From a virus (Duplodnaviria; Heunggongvirae; Uroviricota; Caudoviricetes): a stretch of DNA of 13,874 nucleotides. Both the position numbers and the translations under genes were made by a program. Each line of letters opens with the position of its first letter. The first letter of the stretch is position 1. Shown here piece after piece: positions 1-13,044 of this stretch. Location: the IMG/VR virus record IMGVR_UViG_2695420589_000012. The stretch is one strand, 5' to 3'. The notes beneath the pieces were generated by a model. It was not told the DNA's origin and ran no database searches. It saw only the letters and a list, made by a program, of their open reading frames with translations.

Positions 1-79
1 TATCAGGATGCTACCAATGAAAGATACTGGAAAGCCAACTGCAAAAAGCTAACAACCCGTAATCGAGTTATCAGAACTG

Positions 80-379
80 TTAATTTTTATGGTATACCGC
101 GNNNNNNNNNNNNNNNNNNNNNNNNNNNNNNNNNNNNNNNNNNNNNNNNNNNNNNNNNNNNNNNNNNNNNNNNNNNNNNNNNNNNNNNNNNNNNNNNNNN
201 NNNNNNNNNNNNNNNNNNNNNNNNNNNNNNNNNNNNNNNNNNNNNNNNNNNNNNNNNNNNNNNNNNNNNNNNNNNNNNNNNNNNNNNNNNNNNNNNNNNN
301 NNNNNNNNNNNNNNNNNNNNNNNNNNNNNNNNNCAAAATTGCGGATCCCTTTCACAATCAGTTCATAGTTTTGAGTCAT
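80..379 (-). CDS. Hypothetical protein in the endolysin position directly downstream of the pinholin; interior masked, identity unresolved
   Basis: ATG at 379-377 lies 5 nt after the holin stop, with a GGGGAGAG Shine-Dalgarno-like run inside the holin 3' end. Visible N-terminus MTQNYELIVKGIRNF and C-terminus AVYHKN; 231 nt of the interior are masked. Visible flanks are AT-rich. Whether the two visible ends belong to one 99-aa protein depends on the mask preserving length. Confidence 0.3.
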   Translation of the reverse strand: MTQNYELIVKGIRNFXXXXXXXXXXXXXXXXXXXXXXXXXXXXXXXXXXXXXXXXXXXXXXXXXXXXXXXXXXXXXXXXXXXXXXXXXXXXXXAVYHKN

Positions 380-383
380 TGAA

Positions 384-599
384 TTACTCTCCCCGTGCAG
401 CCTTACGACGGTCCTCTCTGATTTTGAAATACAGGTTAGTCAGATATGTCAGCAGCCCAAACAGCAGACTCCCCAGCACGCCTATTGCCGCCCACTGAGA
501 CGGGGAAACCCTGTCCAGCAACTGCAGGAACCAGTAGCCCGTTCCCACCGCTGACGTGGTGTATGACACACCTGTTGTGATTTTTTCCATCTGGTACAT
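384..599 (-). CDS. S: Phage-21-type class II holin (pinholin S), 71 aa, with Met1/Met4 dual-start motif
   Basis: The 71-aa product [71 protein letters not shown] closely matches the S21 pinholin as I recall it (two TM segments, charged C-terminus). SD-like GGGAGACGGGG precedes the ATG. The track's 97-aa version (to 677) is an upstream in-frame extension that runs through a terminator hairpin and is probably not translated. Confidence 0.88.
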
Positions 600-632: not shown

Positions 633-663
633 ATAAAAAAAGCCACCAGTTAAGTACTGATGG
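633..663 (-). terminator. Candidate intrinsic terminator between nanS-p and the holin
   Basis: Minus strand reads CCATCAG-tacttaa-CTGGTGG followed by CTTTTTTTATTG: a 7-bp stem (one G.U pair), 7-nt loop and U-run. Sits in the 150-nt gap between the nanS-p stop (750) and the holin start (599). Confidence 0.4.
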
Positions 664-749
664 CTCTGATAACTCATGCAGGCATCTCAGACGACCCACT
701 GACACTACCGGTGAGTTTAACGATACCTTCCATTTGGCTGGCTCACTTT

Positions 750-2703
750 TTATGATGATGCCGGTGCATTTATCTCCAGCACCAGACTTTCTATCTCAAC
801 GCCATACGCTGCATTTTTGGTAATATCCGTCAGCGTCAGCGCATTCAGCCCCAGTGTCAGACTGTCTTTTATGACCTGGAATGCCGGGCCAGCCACTCCA
901 TTCAGTTTCGGAGTAACCGTGGCACTGCCGGCGGTGAACACCAGCTCCAGCGTCAGCCAGTCGTTACTGTAATTCCCGAACTCGCCCAACTTTGTGTTTC
1001 CTGCTTTCTTGTGATGCATCAGATTCAGTTTGCCGTCTGTGGTCTGGGTGAAGAACGACATCAGGAACGGGTTACCAGTCCCGGTCATCGCCACGACGTC
1101 AGGTAACGCTACATCGGTATACAGATAAATTCCCAGACCGAACTGGTTGTTGGTCAGTGCGCCTGACAGTCGAAACTTACAGCTCAGTCTGCCACCCCGT
1201 GTCAGCAGGGAGACTGCGTCATCCACCGGGCGCGTCAGGGACCAGGCTTTATTGCTCTGCTTGGTGATCTTAAATACACCATCTGACAACTGAACTCCGC
1301 CATTCTTAATGCTCCAGCCCTGCGCAGCAGCGTCTCCGGCTGTCGGCAACAGGGAGATTGTGCGTATGGATGCATCTTCAGACGGCCCCGATGGCGTGTC
1401 GCCGCCGGGCGAGGGTTTGATTTCCGGTGCCTTACCACTAATGAAGGCTAAGGTGCGACCGGCTACGTTCAGAATAGCAGTTGCCATACGATCGGGAATA
1501 ATGCCACGACGCGCCCATGAGCTGAAATGCGTCGGGCGATTTGATGATACCCAGTTTTTGTTCGTTCGGGATGCCGAACCGTAATAACCAGACCCGGCAA
1601 TATCAGGATCTTCTGACGGGTTGNNNNNNNNNNNNNNNNNNNNNNNNNNNNNNNNNNNNNNNNNNNNNNNNNNNNNNNNNNNNNNNNNNNNNNNNNNNNN
1701 NNNNNNNNNNNNNNNNNNNNNNNNNNNNNNNNNNNNNNNNNNNNNNNNNNNNNNNNNNNNNNNNNNNNNNNNNNNNNNNNNNNNNNNNNNNNNNNNNNNN
1801 NNNNNNNNNNNNNNNNNNNNNNNNNNNNNNNNNNNNNNNNNNNNNNNNNNNNNNNNNNNNNNNNNNNNNNNNNNNNNNNNNNNNNNNNNNNNNNNNNNNN
1901 NNNNNNNNNNNNNNNNNNNNNNNNNNNNNNNNNNNNNNNNNNNNNNNNNNNNNNNNNNNNNNNNNNNNNNNNNNNNNNNNNNNNNNNNNNNNNNNNNNNN
2001 NNNNNNNNATCCAGCATATCGCCAGCAAAACGTTTTTCGGGTTTTTCTGCAATGCTGCCTTCGTGCGGAAAAGCAGATCCTGATATAACGGCTTACCCAC
2101 TCCCCAGCGAGCCGAATCCTGACTGGCCCCCGTGGACTCGCTGAATGTCCCCTCCGTGCCCTGGGTGAATGCCGAACCACCACAACAGCATGGTACCAGC
2201 AGGATCCCCGCATTATTAGGGATATACGGAAGCAGTTTTTTGGCAATATGTAAGCCCTGTCCGACACAGCCGTACTGCCCTTTGCTCAGGTCAGCCCGGG
2301 GATGGTTAATCGTACTCATATCCTGAACATCATGCAGACAATGGTCAGCAGGAATGATGTCGTTAAATACGCATACTTCACCACCGGGAGTCACTGTGTT
2401 ACGACGGGCCAGTTGCTTAATGCGCGGATGGGGCGCATCGTATGAATCCGGAAGCGGAAGACCTTCACCGTAAGCCATGGCATTGGATTGCCCGGCCAGT
2501 ACGATGACGTAGTACCACTCCGGCTCAGTTGCACCACTGACGACCACATCACCTTCTGCTGCAATCGCCTGCATCAGGGTATAAGGGGTTATGGCCACCG
2601 GACTACCAAACGGCTGCCAGCCCTCCTTCAGTTTTTGTGTCAGTCGTTTCGCAAGGTCTGACGGCGATGCCGCCCTGACCACGTCATAGTGTTTAAATGC
2701 CAT
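750..2703 (-). CDS. NanS-p-like prophage SGNH/GDSL esterase (sialate O-acetylesterase family); middle masked and the two visible halves are in different frames
   Basis: N-terminal part (2703 to 2009) begins MAFKHYDVVRAASPSDLAKRL and contains the SGNH block-I motif VLAGQSNAMAYGEG. C-terminal part (1623 to 750) is a Gly/Ser/Thr-rich domain ending LVLEINAPASS. SD GGGAGGA lies 6 nt before the ATG at 2703. The N-terminal frame stops at 1603 just past the mask, while the C-terminal frame is offset by one nucleotide (mask length 385 is not a multiple of 3). Confidence 0.65.
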
Positions 2704-4228
2704 GAATCCTCCCGGCCGGGATAATATTGTGAGTAAAATAAGGAGCGGGCTGAAGTCCGGAAGTTACAGGACAATGGCAGAAGAGAGACGACAGCCCGCA
2801 ATTCGAAAAAGACCGCGCAGTTGCGCAGAGTGATTACTATGGGGTATTATTCGCCAGCTGAAATATTACTTCACGTTTTATTGTTTATTCCTTGCCGCCC
2901 GCGTCNNNNNNNNNNNNNNNNNNNNNNNNNNNNNNNNNNNNNNNNNNNNNNNNNNNNNNNNNNNNNNNNNNNNNNNNNNNNNNNNNNNNNNNNNNNNNNN
3001 NNNNNNNNNNNNNNNNNNNNNNNNNNNNNNNNNNNNNNNNNNNNNNNNNNNNNNNNNNNNNNNNNNNNNNNNNNNNNNNNNNNNNNNNNNNNNNNNNNNN
3101 NNNNNNNNNNNNNNNNNNNNNNNNNNNNNNNNNNNNNNNNNNNNNNNNNNNNNNNNNNNNNNNNNNNNNNNNNNNNNNNNNNNNNNNNNNNNNNNNNNNN
3201 NNNNNNNNNNNNNNNNNNNNNNNNNNNNNNNNNNNNNNNNNNNNNNNNNNNNNNNNNNNNNNNNNNNNNNNNNNNNNNNNNNNNNNNNNNNNNNNNNNNN
3301 NNNNNNNNNNNNNNNNNNNNNNNNNNNNNNNNNNNNNNNNNNNNNNNNNNNNNNNNNNNNNNNNNNNNNNNNNNNNNNNNNNNNNNNNNNNNNNNNNNNN
3401 NNNNNNNNNNNNNNNNNNNNNNNNNNNNNNNNNNNNNNNNNNNNNNNNNNNNNNNNNNNNNNNNNNNNNNNNNNNNNNNNNNNNNNNNNNNNNNNNNNNN
3501 NNNNNNNNNNNNNNNNNNNNNNNNNNNNNNNNNNNNNNNNNNNNNNNNNNNNNNNNNNNNNNNNNNNNNNNNNNNNNNNNNNNNNNNNNNNNNNNNNNNN
3601 NNNNNNNNNNNNNNNNNNNNNNNNNNNNNNNNNNNNNNNNNNNNNNNNNNNNNNNNNNNNNNNNNNNNNNNNNNNNNNNNNNNNNNNNNNNNNNNNNNNN
3701 NNNNNNNNNNNNNNNNNNNNNNNNNNNNNNNNNNNNNNNNNNNNNNNNNNNNNNNNNNNNNNNNNNNNNNNNNNNNNNNNNNNNNNNNNNNNNNNNNNNN
3801 NNNNNNNNNNNNNNNNNNNNNNNNNNNNNNNNNNNNNNNNNNNNNNNNNNNNNNNNNNNNNNNNNNNNNNNNNNNNNNNNNNNNNNNNNNNNGCGGATGG
3901 GCCTGGAAGGATAGCGGTCATGTGATGCCGGTTTCCCGGTAACTCAGCACCGGTATCTGAGTCAACGTTTTCTCTACTGGGTCATTTCCGATACGCCCTG
4001 CCTGCTGACAGGCTTTCATCACATCTGACAAAATCAATATAAACAGCCCCTCNNNNNNNNNNNNNNNNNNNNNNNNNNNNNNNNNNNNNNNNNNNNNNNN
4101 NNNNNNNNNNNNNNNNNNNNNNNNNNNNNNNNNNNNNNNNNNNNNNNNNNNNNNNNNNNNNNNNNNNNNNNNNNNNNNNNNNNNNNNNNNNNNNNNNNNN
4201 NNNNNNNNNNNNNNNNNNNNNNNNNNNN

Positions 4229-4262: not shown

Positions 4263-4343
4263 GTTTACTCACATCTGAAAATATAGCACCCTGACTGATA
4301 CTGTAGTACCTAAGGTTCCAGAAACTGTGATGTATCCGGCACA

Positions 4344-4367
4344 GAAAAGCCCCTCCGGAGAGGGCTG
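4344..4367 (-). terminator. Candidate intrinsic terminator downstream of the 117-aa accessory ORF
   Basis: Minus strand GCCCU-cuccgga-GGGGC followed by UUUUCU: a short GC stem (4 G-C pairs plus one G.U) with a U-run. Modest stem, hence low confidence. Confidence 0.3.
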
Positions 4368-4758
4368 GAGAGTGGCGCTATGTGCCATTGCATGATGCCG
4401 GGTGCCTCCCGGTGAATTCAGTACCAGCACCTGAATCCGCGATTATCCCATATACCTACTCGCTGATTGCCCCTCCGCACAGGGGGATTCACCATGCCAG
4501 TTTCTTTTAACAAACTCCCCGCAAACCAGACAACAGTCAACCGCCTGAATTGTGAAGTATTTAAAAATTTCTCCCGCTAACTGATACCCGGCTAACAGTC
4601 TGGCGTTTTCTTTTTCAGCAACGGGAAAGCAACAACCACCACACCCGCCACCAGCACACCGTCAGCCAGCACTGACATTATCCGGCTGCTGCAATGCCAT
4701 TCACAAAAACAGTAAGCAATCACTTTTTACCGTAACAGGTGATAATCCAGATATGTAT

Positions 4759-5222: not shown

Positions 5223-5299
5223 TGGCGCGCTGTACTGGATTCGAACCAGTGACCGATTGCTTAGAAGGCAATTGCTCTGTCCGGCTGAGCTAACAACGC
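5223..5299 (-). tRNA. argO: tRNA-Arg, anticodon UCU (reads AGA/AGG), 77 nt including CCA
   Basis: Hand-folded cloverleaf: acceptor GCGTTGT/ACAGCGC, D-arm GCTC/GAGC, anticodon stem ATTGC/GCAAT with loop CTTCTAA, T-arm ACTGG-TTCGAAT-CCAGT, encoded CCA. The symbol follows the ileZ-argN-argO order known from Stx phage 933W; which Arg gene carries which name is from memory. Confidence 0.85.
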
Positions 5300-5312
5300 A
5301 TGATGCAGATAA

Positions 5313-5389
5313 TGGACCGCCATCGGGGACTTGAACCCCGCGCAGCCAGCTTCGAAGGCTGGCGCTCTTTCCTGATGAGCTAATGGCGG
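5313..5389 (-). tRNA. argN: tRNA-Arg, anticodon UCG as read from the sequence, 77 nt including CCA
   Basis: Cloverleaf: acceptor CCGCCAT/ATGGCGG (C1-G72), D-arm GCTC/GAGC, anticodon stem CCAGC/GCTGG with loop CTTCGAA, T-arm CGGGG-TTCAAGT-CCCCG, CCA. The UCG anticodon is my direct reading; the symbol is assigned by position only. Confidence 0.78.
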
Positions 5390-5396
5390 TATGTGA

Positions 5397-5472
5397 TGGT
5401 GGCCCTTGCTGGATTTGAACCAGCGACCTGGCGATTATGAGTCGCTCGCTCTCACCACTGAGCTAAAGGGCC
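5397..5472 (-). tRNA. ileZ: tRNA with CAU anticodon, ileX-like (probable lysidine-modified tRNA-Ile2 reading AUA), 76 nt including CCA
   Basis: GGCCCTTTAGCTCAGTGGTGAGAGCGAGCGACTCATAATCGCCAGGTCGCTGGTTCAAATCCAGCAAGGGCCACCA. Anticodon loop CTCATAA. The body resembles E. coli ileX rather than initiator or elongator Met tRNA. First of three tandem tRNAs, 40 nt downstream of the methyltransferase stop. Confidence 0.85.
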
Positions 5473-6470: not shown

Positions 6471-7248
6471 NNNNNNNNNNNNNNNNNNNNNNNNNNNNNN
6501 NNNNNNNNNNNNNNNNNNNNNNNNNNNNNNNNNNNNNNNNNNNNNNNNNNNNNNNNNNNNNNNNNNNNNNNNNNNNNNNNNNNNNNNNNNNNNNNNNNNN
6601 NNNNNNNNNNNNNNNNNNNNNNNNNNNNNNNNNNNNNNNNNNNNNNNNNNNNNNNNNNNNNNNNNNNNNNNNNNNNNNNNNNNNNNNNNNNNNNNNNNNN
6701 NNNNNNNNNNNNNNNNNNNNNNNNNNNNNNNNNNNNNNNNNNNNNNNNNNNNNNNNNNNNNNNNNNNNNNNNNNNNNNNNNNNNNNNNNNNNNNNNNNNN
6801 NNNNNNNNNNNNNNNNNNNNNNNNNNNNNNNNNNNNNNNNNNNNNNNNNNNNNNNNNNNNNNNNNNNNNNNNNNNNNNNNNNNNNNNNNNNNNNNNNNNN
6901 NNNNNNNNNNNNNNNNNNNNNNNNNNNNNNNNNNNNNNNNNNNNNNNNNNNNNNNNNNNNNNNNNNNNNNNNNNNNNNNNNNNNNNNNNNNNNNNNNNNN
7001 NNNNNNNNNNNNNNNNNNNNNNNNNNNNNNNNNNNNNNNNNNNNNNNNNNNNNNNNNNNNNNNNNNNNNNNNNNNNNNNNNNNNNNNNNNNNNNNNNNNN
7101 NNNNNNNNNNNNNNNNNNNNNNNNNNNNNNNNNNNNNNNNNNNNNNNNNNNNNNNNNNNNNNNNNNNNNNNNNNNNNNNNNNNNNNNNNNNNNNNNNNNN
7201 NNNNNNNNNNNNNNNNNNNNNNNNNNNNAGGCATANNNNNNNNNNNNN

Positions 7249-8068
7249 ACCTAGTTACCTTTTTTAACTGCCGCTCAGCCCATGCTTCTTCAATATCAAA
7301 CCGGGTCACCAGCGCATCATAAAATTTCTTAACTGTTTTTTCCCATGACGCGCGTGTTATCTGGTTTGTCACCTCGCATATAGCATTAAATGCCTCCGTT
7401 GATGGTAGTCTTTCATAGCCACGACCACCACAACGCTGGCAGTCTCTGATAACAGGCATACCACGTTTTACCGACTCTTCACGATGAATGGCGACACCAC
7501 GCCCACGGCAATCCTTACAGGCGGTGGAAACCTCACCCTTTCCGCCACACTCCGGACAGGCAACTTTTACCACCTCCCTGACTTTTTTCCATTCTTCCCA
7601 GTAAGACGGATACACACCTTTCGTACACTTTGCCCATACCGGCGGCTTACCATCCGGATACTGGATCTTGTTTGTAAAAACCTCGCTTTCAATAAATTTT
7701 TTTCCGTGACAGCAGGGGCACTGTTTTTTGCTCGCCGCGCTACGGGCATAATCTTCAAACGCATACGAAGCCATAATACGCATCACTGCCGGTTTTATTT
7801 CTGCCGGGAGTTTTCTTAACGCCGCCACGCGATCACACCGACTGAGTGCATATTCTGTCAGCAATTCTGTTGCCCGCTCTCTGTCATTCATACTAATGCC
7901 CATTTTCCCAAGGAACGCAGAAACCCCCATCTCAGCCCGATTCTGTGTCATGCCCTGCGCGGCCATCACATCAGTGATACTCAGCGCATCTTTCGACGTT
8001 GAGGCCGATGCATCAGTCAGGCCGGGGGATTTTGGGGAGTAGTATTTCGGTAAATCTTCCAGTTTCAT
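7249..8068 (-). CDS. Q: Probable late-gene antiterminator Q (phage-82 / QuuQ-like family) with four CxxCxGxG zinc-finger repeats; C-terminal end masked
   Basis: ATG at 8068 overlaps the rusA stop (ATGA), the conserved rusA-Q arrangement in lambdoid nin regions. N-terminus MKLEDLPKYYSPKSPGL resembles Q82-family proteins as I recall them. Four Cys pairs are visible (CPCCHGKKF, CPECGGKGEV, CKDCRGRG, CQRCGGRG). The family call rests on position plus memory, not a search. Confidence 0.55.
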
Positions 8069-8439
8069 TTTTTGACCTGCTCTTCATGCATTATGGGGTA
8101 AATCTTCACCCCCAGACGTCCACCAGATACTGGCTGACCACGAACGATATTGATTTCATCAAACTGCTCATCGTCCATTAACACTCCCGCATGTGTCAGT
8201 GCATCCAGTGGTGCTTTCAGGATATTGTCCAGGTCACGACGGCGCTTATCCGGTGGCTCTGCAATAATCTTTATCGCCAGTCTTCCGGACAGGCTTAATT
8301 TCAGTCGCTGCTGACGGACAATAAGCGCCACATCCCGGCGATAACGCTCACCGGCTTTTGATACAAAATATGTGTTGTCACGACGTCGCCAGTAAGTATT
8401 CACCGTCGGCGGATAAGGTAAAATAAACTCATGGCGCAT
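8065..8439 (-). CDS. rusA: RusA-family Holliday-junction resolvase (crossover junction endodeoxyribonuclease)
   Basis: 124 aa: MRHEFILPYPPTVNTYWRRR ... PDKRRRDLDNILKAPLDALTHAGVLMDDEQ, with the conserved DLDN catalytic core, similar to DLP12 RusA. Start overlaps the upstream gene's stop and its stop overlaps the Q start. Confidence 0.85.
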   Translation of the reverse strand: MRHEFILPYPPTVNTYWRRRDNTYFVSKAGERYRRDVALIVRQQRLKLSLSGRLAIKIIAEPPDKRRRDLDNILKAPLDALTHAGVLMDDEQFDEINIVRGQPVSGGRLGVKIYPIMHEEQVKK

Positions 8440-8681
8440 CAGCGCAGCACCTCCTGCACCAGTTTTTCAAACTTTCCGACTCTGGTTTCCAGCTCTGCCA
8501 CACAGTCCACCAGCTCATCTACTGCTTTCTGTGCGCGATGCTTCGCCTGCATCAGTTCCCGAAGCGCGGGTACCATATCTTTACGGATAGCGTCTTTTGT
8601 TATGCCCGTTTTTTCGAGTTGTTCAGCATGACGCAGCATTTCCTGCGCGTGTTTACGCAATTGTTCAGGGGTAAAAGTCAT
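8439..8681 (-). CDS. Hypothetical small helical/coiled-coil phage protein (nin-region), about 80 aa
   Basis: ORF MTFTPEQLRKHAQEMLRHAEQLEKTG ... VGKFEKLVQEVLR; its stop TGA overlaps the rusA ATG. The track start at 8696 is a TTG; the first ATG is at 8681. No strong SD, function unknown. Confidence 0.5.
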   Translation of the reverse strand: MTFTPEQLRKHAQEMLRHAEQLEKTGITKDAIRKDMVPALRELMQAKHRAQKAVDELVDCVAELETRVGKFEKLVQEVLR

Positions 8682-8816
8682 TGTCTGGTTGTTCAAAAGA
8701 AACGCTCCATCTTACTGCTGTCAGTTCGTTTATTACTGTATCTGCGCGGATTGCCGGGCTTCATGGGAGTGGAAAGCACCCGTGCACTTTCCTGGTCCAC
8801 AGGCAGAAAATGTCCG

Positions 8817-8973
8817 TAGACTGGCCCCCTGAATCTCCAGACAACCAGTATCACTTAAATAAGTGATAGTCTTAATACTAGTTTTTAGACTAGTCATTGG
8901 AGTACAGATGATTGATGTCTTAGGGCCGGAGAAACGCAGACGGCGTACCACACAGGAAAAGATCGCAATTGTG
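8817..8973 (+). mobile_element. IS2 left end (IRL plus first about 22 codons of orfA/insC), truncated by the IS21-family element
   Basis: TAGACTGGCCCCCTGAATCTCCAGACAACCAGTATCACTTAAATAAGTGATAGTCTTAATACTAG ... ATGATTGATGTCTTAGGGCCGGAGAAACGCAGACGG matches the IS2 left terminus and the InsC N-terminus [22 protein letters not shown] as recalled. Homology stops after ...GCAATTGTG (about 8973). Confidence 0.8.
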
Positions 8974-9030
8974 TCAACGCCACGATGTTTGACCGTTATT
9001 TGCCATTTTCATGCCCGCTAAATACTTTCG

Positions 9031-10616
<1,586 letters not shown>

Positions 10617-12677: not shown

Positions 12678-12833
12678 TTACTCCTCAGGTTCGTAAGCTG
12701 TGAAGACAGCGACCTCCGTCTGGCCGGTTCGAATTCGTACCTCGCAGAGGTCTTTCCTCGTTACCAGTGCCGTCACTATGACGGTTAAACAGATGACGAT
12801 CAGGGCGATTAACATCGCCTTTTGCTGCTTCAT
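12678..12833 (-). CDS. hok: Hok/Gef-family type I toxin (HokD/RelF-like), 51 aa
   Basis: MKQQKAMLIALIVICLTVIVTALVTRKDLCEVRIRTGQTEVAVFTAYEPEE: single TM helix plus conserved Cys periplasmic tail, matching HokD/RelF as I recall it. SD AAGGAG lies 7 nt upstream of the ATG. The track ORF (to 12890) is an in-frame 19-codon upstream extension. Confidence 0.85.
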   Translation of the reverse strand: MKQQKAMLIALIVICLTVIVTALVTRKDLCEVRIRTGQTEVAVFTAYEPEE

Positions 12834-13044
12834 AGCCTGCTTCTCCTTGCCTTTCGGCACGTAAGAGGCTAACCTAGATTTGCCGTTCATAGATTGAGCC
12901 TCAGATTAATGTTAAGCGTCTTGCCGGACGCGTAATGTTAACTGGGGCTTTTCTCTATCTGCCTTTTGGTGTTCATGCCTGAGACAGATAGCCTCAAGCA
13001 CCCGCTGCAATTCTACTTAACTCTCCTTTTCCCGCAAACCGTTT

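Follow-up and report, generated by a model that had tools for sequence, protein, structure and literature searches.

Pinholins of the phage 21 type form small heptameric holes that depolarise the membrane and do not let a folded endolysin pass. In the window (the whole stretch of DNA analysed, 13,874 nucleotides), a holin gene of this type is followed by a small, partly masked open reading frame whose visible N-terminus does not resemble a signal-anchor-release (SAR) endolysin. The initial annotation offered two explanations for this arrangement, namely a rearrangement of the lysis cassette or the presence, between S and R, of a small accessory gene. The questions raised by this locus are therefore where the endolysin is, what the gene following the holin gene encodes, and what its product might do.

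Organization of the lysis region

Positions 1-760 of the window carry, all on the minus strand, the 3' end of an esterase gene, a terminator-like hairpin, an ORF of 71 codons, a 4-nt spacer and an ORF starting at position 379 (Table 1). This segment would open the lysis cassette, an ordinary one, of the late operon in a lambdoid prophage of the E. coli type. Its genes would follow the order NanS-p/SASA esterase, terminator-like hairpin, class II holin, ydfR and, past the edge of the window, SAR-type lysozyme and Rz/Rz1. Judged by homology, such an ordinary cassette, in which the flagged gene is ydfR between pinholin and SAR lysozyme, is very probably the best explanation of the region as a whole. 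The gene itself and the holin-ydfR-SAR lysozyme-Rz layout are already annotated and widespread, and represent an ordinary feature.

Table 1. Features of the lysis region and their positions in the window.
Feature	Position	Strand	Remarks
Esterase gene (NanS-p/SASA-type)	750-2703	-	Stop at 750; DUF1737 N-terminus and SASA esterase domain
Terminator-like hairpin and T-run	639..667	-	Between esterase and holin genes; predicted by consensus scan
Class II (phage-21-type) holin/pinholin gene, 71 aa	384..599	-	ORF, PF04971 and PHROG
Spacer, 4 nt	380..383	-	Holin stop (386-384) to ydfR ATG (379-377)
ydfR-family (DUF1327) gene	49..379	-	Readable: codons 1-15, last 17 codons and stop; middle masked
Apparent C-terminus 'AVYHKN*' of 99-aa ORF	80..101	-	Out-of-frame artefact of mask length
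ydfR/SAR lysozyme intergenic spacer	1..48	-	Layout from relatives with identical 101-nt flank

The esterase gene lies directly upstream of the holin gene, as in Stx phages, and a mask makes it look frameshifted. A second, weak terminator-like hairpin with a T-run (49-74, minus strand) extends over the true stop codon of ydfR and precedes the lysozyme gene. A consensus scan of positions 1-900 found no promoter-like site, and a promoter of its own for ydfR, as a moron would have, was rejected on this ground. No Rfam RNA family matched positions 1-760.

The holin

The 71-aa product of the ORF at 599..384 matched the Pfam family PF04971, 'Bacteriophage P21 holin S', over residues 5-67 (E=9e-33, 112.5 bits, for a cut-off of 26 bits), and it also matched PHROG holin families. 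It is 79% identical to EssQ of E. coli K-12, and RefSeq lists an identical protein, WP_000284510.1, as a 'class II holin family protein'. The earlier call of a pinholin gene is thus well founded. No NCBIfam HMM match was obtained for this protein or for YdfR. Pinholins of this type are expected to have two transmembrane segments, the first of them weakly hydrophobic, and a dual-start motif. Here the second transmembrane domain has a Kyte-Doolittle mean of 1.99, the first was assigned by eye only, and the C-terminal end of the protein reads ...KAARGE. From family membership only, we infer that this holin would form the small heptameric holes typical of its relatives.

Codons 1 and 4 of the holin gene both encode Met (MYQMEK), and the longer form of such holins is thought to be made an antiholin by its extra positive charge. 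The dual-start extension (590-599) reads Met-Tyr-Gln here, versus Met-Lys-Ser (MKSMDK) in K-12 EssQ and in phage 21 S. As this three-residue extension does not contain the Lys of EssQ, antiholin behaviour of the longer form is uncertain.

The gene following the holin gene is a ydfR homologue

The next ORF has its ATG at 379, 4 nt past the holin stop, and begins MTQNYELIVKGIRNF, while a GGAG-type ribosome-binding site for it sits within the 3' end of the holin gene. The same 4-nt spacing between holin and ydfR is annotated in strains 042 and 55989, in the K-12 Qin prophage and in phages Perceval and BP-4795. About 70% of ydfR is masked in the window, and its identity is drawn from the visible flanks, which are 100% identical to the DNA of 042, 55989 and APEC E19035. 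The visible parts are also 100% identical to loci annotated as holin/YdfR family protein/lysozyme/lysis protein in these three strains and in Ecol_AZ155 and HCP5S3_I4. The readable codons 1-15 and the last 17 codons are identical to the 104-aa YdfR homologue of 55989. That protein matched PF07041 (DUF1327) with an E-value of 5e-39 and 132.8 bits, the Pfam gathering score being 25 bits, and phrog_2735, a PHROG of unassigned function, with an E-value of 3.5e-55. RefSeq names the gene of the relatives 'YdfR family protein'.

As far as homology shows, the small gene after the holin gene is ydfR (DUF1327), a known accessory gene and not an endolysin gene, and its product is predicted to be an accessory protein that is small and soluble, not membrane-bound. 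The quoted N-terminus MTQNYELIVKGIRNF had been judged unlike that of a SAR protein, and this agrees with the intact relatives, where no hydrophobic segment was found; nor did the intact homologue contain a lysozyme or peptidase domain. Of the two proposals made initially, the one that held is that of a small accessory gene separating S and R, since the gene is ydfR/DUF1327 and a lysozyme gene comes next in all close relatives. The description of the gene as AT-rich was only weakly confirmed, the intact homologue having 47% GC versus 53% for the holin gene and 51% for the lysozyme gene.

Mask length and reading frame

The ORF had been given as 99 aa long, ending at position 80, and its size had been used as an argument that it is too small for a lysozyme. 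Both the size and the argument fall with the mask on which they were built: the N-run at 102-333 is 232 nt long, versus 216 nt for the same interval in 55989 and Ecol_AZ155 and 217 nt in 042 and eight others, including APEC E19035 and HCP5S3_I4. When positions 1-760 were searched against 5426 complete E. coli genomes, all top matches linked both visible flanks over 743-745 nt, not 760. A second N-run (1624-2008) is 385 nt long versus 285 nt in all relatives, and taken literally it would frameshift the esterase gene. The mask length therefore keeps neither sequence length nor reading frame, and the assumption that it preserves the frame (length modulo 3) was rejected. A third N-run, at 2906-3892, is 987 nt long versus 313 nt in the closest relatives, and there the content may truly differ.

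Read in the correct frame, the visible 3' part of ydfR (ORF 49..336) is RYTIKINSSDNSITGC*, with its stop at 49-51, and matches the 104-aa YdfR of 55989. In that strain the stretch corresponding to 80..101 reads ...ARYTIKI... in the frame that stops at 49-51. The ending 'AVYHKN*' is out of frame in intact relatives and was rejected as a real protein end. More generally, ORF sizes and frames that cross masks in this window cannot be trusted.

A SAR-type lysozyme gene beyond the left edge

Positions 1-101 of the window correspond to positions 6745-6645 of a related locus (L001), where the lysozyme CDS starts at 6753; its ATG is thus located 8 nt beyond position 1. These leftmost 101 nt are identical in 042, 55989, APEC E19035, Ecol_AZ155 and HCP5S3_I4, and all five strains carry a 534-nt lysozyme gene (177 aa) 8 nt past position 1, followed by a gene for an Rz-type 'lysis protein'. 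R and Rz, which the initial annotation had proposed to look for downstream, are hence both present in relatives with an identical flank.

The lysozyme of the relatives begins MSAKIKYGLSAAVLALIAAGASAPQ and matched PF00959 with an E-value of 2e-24. Its residues 7-24 (YGLSAAVLALIAAGASAP) are 61% Gly/Ala/Ser and have a Kyte-Doolittle mean of 1.82, and an E-x8-D-x5-T catalytic motif (EGNHTTAYRDGSGIWT) was spotted by eye. The features of a SAR endolysin, a lysozyme domain preceded by a weakly hydrophobic N-terminal segment rich in Gly, Ala and Ser, are thus carried by the gene after ydfR in relatives with the identical flank, a gene that lies outside the window. They are absent from YdfR, whose best 17-residue Kyte-Doolittle mean is 0.95, in the C-terminal half, and which has no PF00959 or other muralytic domain.

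The pinholin gene is without a visible SAR endolysin partner because the window stops 8 nt short of the lysozyme start codon. To judge from these relatives, the pairing of pinholin and SAR endolysin is intact, with ydfR inserted between both genes, and since the pinholin has such a partner, lysis would need nothing from ydfR. A rearranged cassette, in which the pinholin has lost its SAR endolysin, has as its sole supporting point that no endolysin is visible inside the window, and can practically be discounted given that the identical left flank leads into a SAR-type lysozyme gene in the relatives. The apparent anomaly is thereby removed: this is the standard layout, annotated by RefSeq in thousands of E. 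coli genomes.

Integrity of this ydfR copy

The ydfR gene of the window encodes 104 aa if it is intact, as in 55989, and it may be frameshifted, as in 042. The two alleles differ by an A6/A7 homopolymer polymorphism at about ydfR codons 28-29 (L001 6463-6469), under the mask: A6 at the GACAAAAAACGC run is the open 104-codon frame, while A7 is a pseudogene. All nine complete genomes that match the window on both visible flanks with 100% identity contain one more A in the run GACAAAAAA(A)CGC, and RefSeq labels their ydfR 'frameshifted'. The closest intact haplotype differs at one visible base, window position 737, about 330 nt away.

There is about an even chance that this copy is a decaying pseudogene, with the +1 frameshift A7 as in 042, cut after about 31 aa and without a function here. 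It would be in line with this that every one of the nine complete genomes with exact flanks carries the 217-nt A7 allele, and that the IS21-family insertion upstream in the prophage suggests decay. The A-run of this copy, however, lies under the mask, and a single visible base, at position 737, separates it from the nearest intact haplotype.

Features and distribution of the YdfR family

Proteins of the YdfR family are typically small (about 100-116 aa), and the homologue of 55989 has no transmembrane segment and a pI of 4.85. The first 75 or so residues of YdfR are conserved, and the dN/dS of this core is 0.25-0.45; ydfR encodes a real protein under purifying selection. In the AlphaFold model the core (about residues 1-73) consists of three antiparallel β-strands and a long helix, with a pLDDT around 90, and the C-terminal tail is predicted to be disordered. 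Fold searches with YdfR returned no informative relative, a profile search against PDB sequences gave no match, and no PADLOC defence model was matched.

The tails are swapped or extended among relatives, giving lengths of 104, 114, 116, 161, 176, 206 and 287 aa. In E. coli loci, the spacer between holin and ydfR has a constant length of 4 nt, while the junction between ydfR and the lysozyme gene ranges from a 4-nt overlap to about 370 nt. Varying tails, a fixed holin junction and a variable lysozyme junction together suggest that ydfR has a mosaic recombination boundary at its 3' end. The DUF1327 core also occurs fused to varied C-terminal modules (P0131, 287 aa; P0130, 206 aa; P0054 and P0033, 176 aa), which probably arose by read-through into downstream phage ORFs or by recombination with them. 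In loci with the 114-aa ydfR variant, a 90-aa antisense ORF (L002 3192-3464, strain AR_0013; also L003 and L004) is annotated ahead of the lysozyme gene, starting or ending within the 3' part of ydfR; a similar antisense ORF is found in Salmonella loci (L014 3309-3548).

Of the 5426 complete E. coli genomes, 4249 contain DNA resembling ydfR. Among phage records, 101 encode the protein, including many Stx1a and Stx2c phages and H-19B. The order holin-ydfR-lysozyme-Rz is found in K-12 Qin, 042, 55989 and the phages Perceval (which encodes a protein 100% identical to the YdfR of 55989), BP-4795 and vB_EcoS-783R2; in Salmonella prophages, the DUF1327 gene is located between a holin gene of another family (PF16080) and a lysozyme gene. 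The family comprises 260 clusters at 90% identity. Its range is very narrow, with 61 representatives among 1.84 billion proteins, and all members for which an organism name is given come from Escherichia, Shigella or Salmonella. Two repeat proteins that matched YdfR were rejected: a 2356-aa protein (P0148) that on inspection proved to be a low-complexity T/S/G/A repeat, so that its match is compositional, and, by analogy with it, a 3128-aa protein (P0150). A distant DUF1327 member, 37% identical, is encoded outside a lysis cassette, with a lambda-I-like tail gene on one side and the gpJ tail-tip gene on the other (L012 3001-3285). This location among tail genes I and J speaks for an accessory gene that is mobile and not specific to lysis.

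Comparison with known lysis cassettes

The essQ-ydfR-rrrQ-rzpQ/rzoQ cassette of the K-12 Qin prophage (YdfR P76160) has the same gene order and the same 4-nt holin-ydfR spacer, and K-12 RrrQ has the same SAR-type N-terminus as the lysozyme of the window's relatives. The YdfR proteins of K-12 and 55989 are 65% identical overall and about 81-85% identical in the N-terminal part (about residues 1-66 or 1-72), whereas the C-terminal 30 or so residues are unrelated between K-12 and this allele (...SEKVESYLQHQYSFKIENPANKHERPHHKYL versus ...CEGDELLPETRPCSEARYTIKINSSDNSITGC). In addition, there is a 4-nt overlap of ydfR with the start codon of rrrQ in K-12, whereas here 55 nt separate ydfR and the lysozyme gene.

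The phage 21/JLK-2012 cassette (S21-R21-Rz21) likewise encodes a PF04971 holin, then a SAR endolysin and a spanin. JLK-2012 also has the same esterase, and its holin region shows 92% DNA identity, but the holin gene is directly joined to the endolysin gene, with no ydfR, as is presumably the case in phage 21 too. The endolysins are of different types, R21 (MSPSLRKAVAAAIGGG...) in JLK-2012 and RrrQ/RrrD (MSAKIKYGLSAAVLALIAAGASAP...) in the relatives of the window. The direct junction of holin and SAR endolysin in JLK-2012 and the frameshifted ydfR alleles of nine genomes indicate that ydfR is dispensable for lysis.

A further subfamily of DUF1327 proteins is found in Stx phages (H-19B, BP-4795 ORF47, and Stx1a and Stx2c phages). 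Its members share the position between S and R, the fold-defining core and the Pfam assignment to DUF1327, but they are only 54-57% identical, have a different N-terminus (MKKKYELVVKGINNYPDK...) and carry the 114-aa tail variant.

Possible functions of YdfR

Residues 1-72 of K-12 YdfR bind the N-terminal half of RNase E in two-hybrid assays (PMC13232886, RNA Biol 2026). In the same study, Rne(1-598) co-purified with Strep-YdfR, RNA co-purified too, and overexpression of ydfR changed few transcripts (PMC13232886). The authors also cite a genetic screen tying K-12 ydfR to envelope integrity and note that the Qin cluster is up-regulated under cold stress (PMC13232886). The region that interacts with RNase E, residues 1-72 in K-12, is about 81-85% identical in the allele of the window.

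From these data a possible function can be outlined. Since its start lies 4 nt past the holin stop and the scan found no promoter-like site, ydfR should be expressed together with the lysis genes, on their Q-antiterminated late transcript. Residues 1-73, which form the conserved N-terminal domain of three β-strands and a helix, would bind the catalytic half of host RNase E, as the K-12 orthologue is reported to do, and this binding would adjust RNA decay or processing in late phage development. The variable, disordered C-terminal tail would be a by-product of the mosaic recombination boundary that lies at the gene's 3' end. Taken jointly, a late-expressed modulator of host RNase E with a tail left by recombination is a tentative reading, drawn by analogy with K-12. 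The link to RNase E comes from one paper using overexpression (PMC13232886), the acidic pI speaks against general RNA binding and, the flank-matching relatives being frameshifted, this copy may be non-functional.

Phage-encoded modulators of RNase E include T4 Srd, T7 gp0.7 and phiKZ Dip. To these, YdfR would be related by functional analogy only, and the likeness holds if the K-12 result (PMC13232886) carries over, in which case YdfR would be a small phage protein contacting host RNase E. That YdfR further represents an unrecognised class of temperate-phage RNase E modulator, reprogramming host RNA decay in late development, seems unlikely to us. Encoded second on the Q-dependent late transcript, it might for instance protect the very long late mRNA. 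If true, RNase E modulation would explain why most lambdoid prophages of E. coli keep ydfR beside their lysis genes; to this idea the window adds only one more, possibly frameshifted, copy.

YdfR could alternatively be a moron-type passenger that helps the lysogen under cold or envelope stress, or a selfish element, with no lytic role in either case. The very narrow range of the family, the mosaic C-termini with their varied tails (104 to 287 aa), the different genomic position of the distant member and the response of the Qin cluster to cold stress (PMC13232886) would all fit a passenger. We nevertheless hold this to be improbable, as the scan found no promoter-like site, the tight junction with S implies late-operon expression, and ydfR is retained in viable, inducible phages.

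YdfR might also be a lysis regulator, that is, a cytoplasmic factor tuning the triggering of the pinholin or the release of the SAR endolysin. This would account for its fixed site between S and R and for its 4-nt junction with S, and the position between holin and lysozyme genes is kept in E. coli as well as in Salmonella, even where the holin belongs to another family. YdfR has, however, no membrane segment or signal, the same holin adjoins its SAR endolysin without ydfR in JLK-2012, and the distant member sits among tail genes. As for the screen linking K-12 ydfR to envelope integrity (cited in PMC13232886), that phenotype could be polar, ydfR overlapping the rrrQ start codon in K-12. A role in lysis regulation is accordingly quite unlikely. 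The reported binding to RNase E gives a testable lead for ydfR/DUF1327, a family that is very common in E. coli prophages and under purifying selection.

Other features of the prophage

An IS21-family element (istA/istB), located at about 8434-10598, splits the prophage between a DUF968 gene and a rusA-like gene; over about 1.8 kb, the element matches IS21 copies at 98-99.9% identity. The insertion points to a defective prophage. Because of it, the unmasked block 7249-10597 (3349 nt) had no full-length match among the 5426 complete E. coli genomes, the best match reaching 84% coverage and 89% identity.

Rfam and ARAGORN matches on the minus strand (4337-4526, 5223-5472 and 12828-13003) correspond to the STnc100 sRNA, three tRNA genes and the sok antitoxin RNA of a hok/sok locus. 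The tRNA genes are Arg-tct, Arg-tcg and Met-cat, the last of which is annotated as Ile by RefSeq in the relatives.
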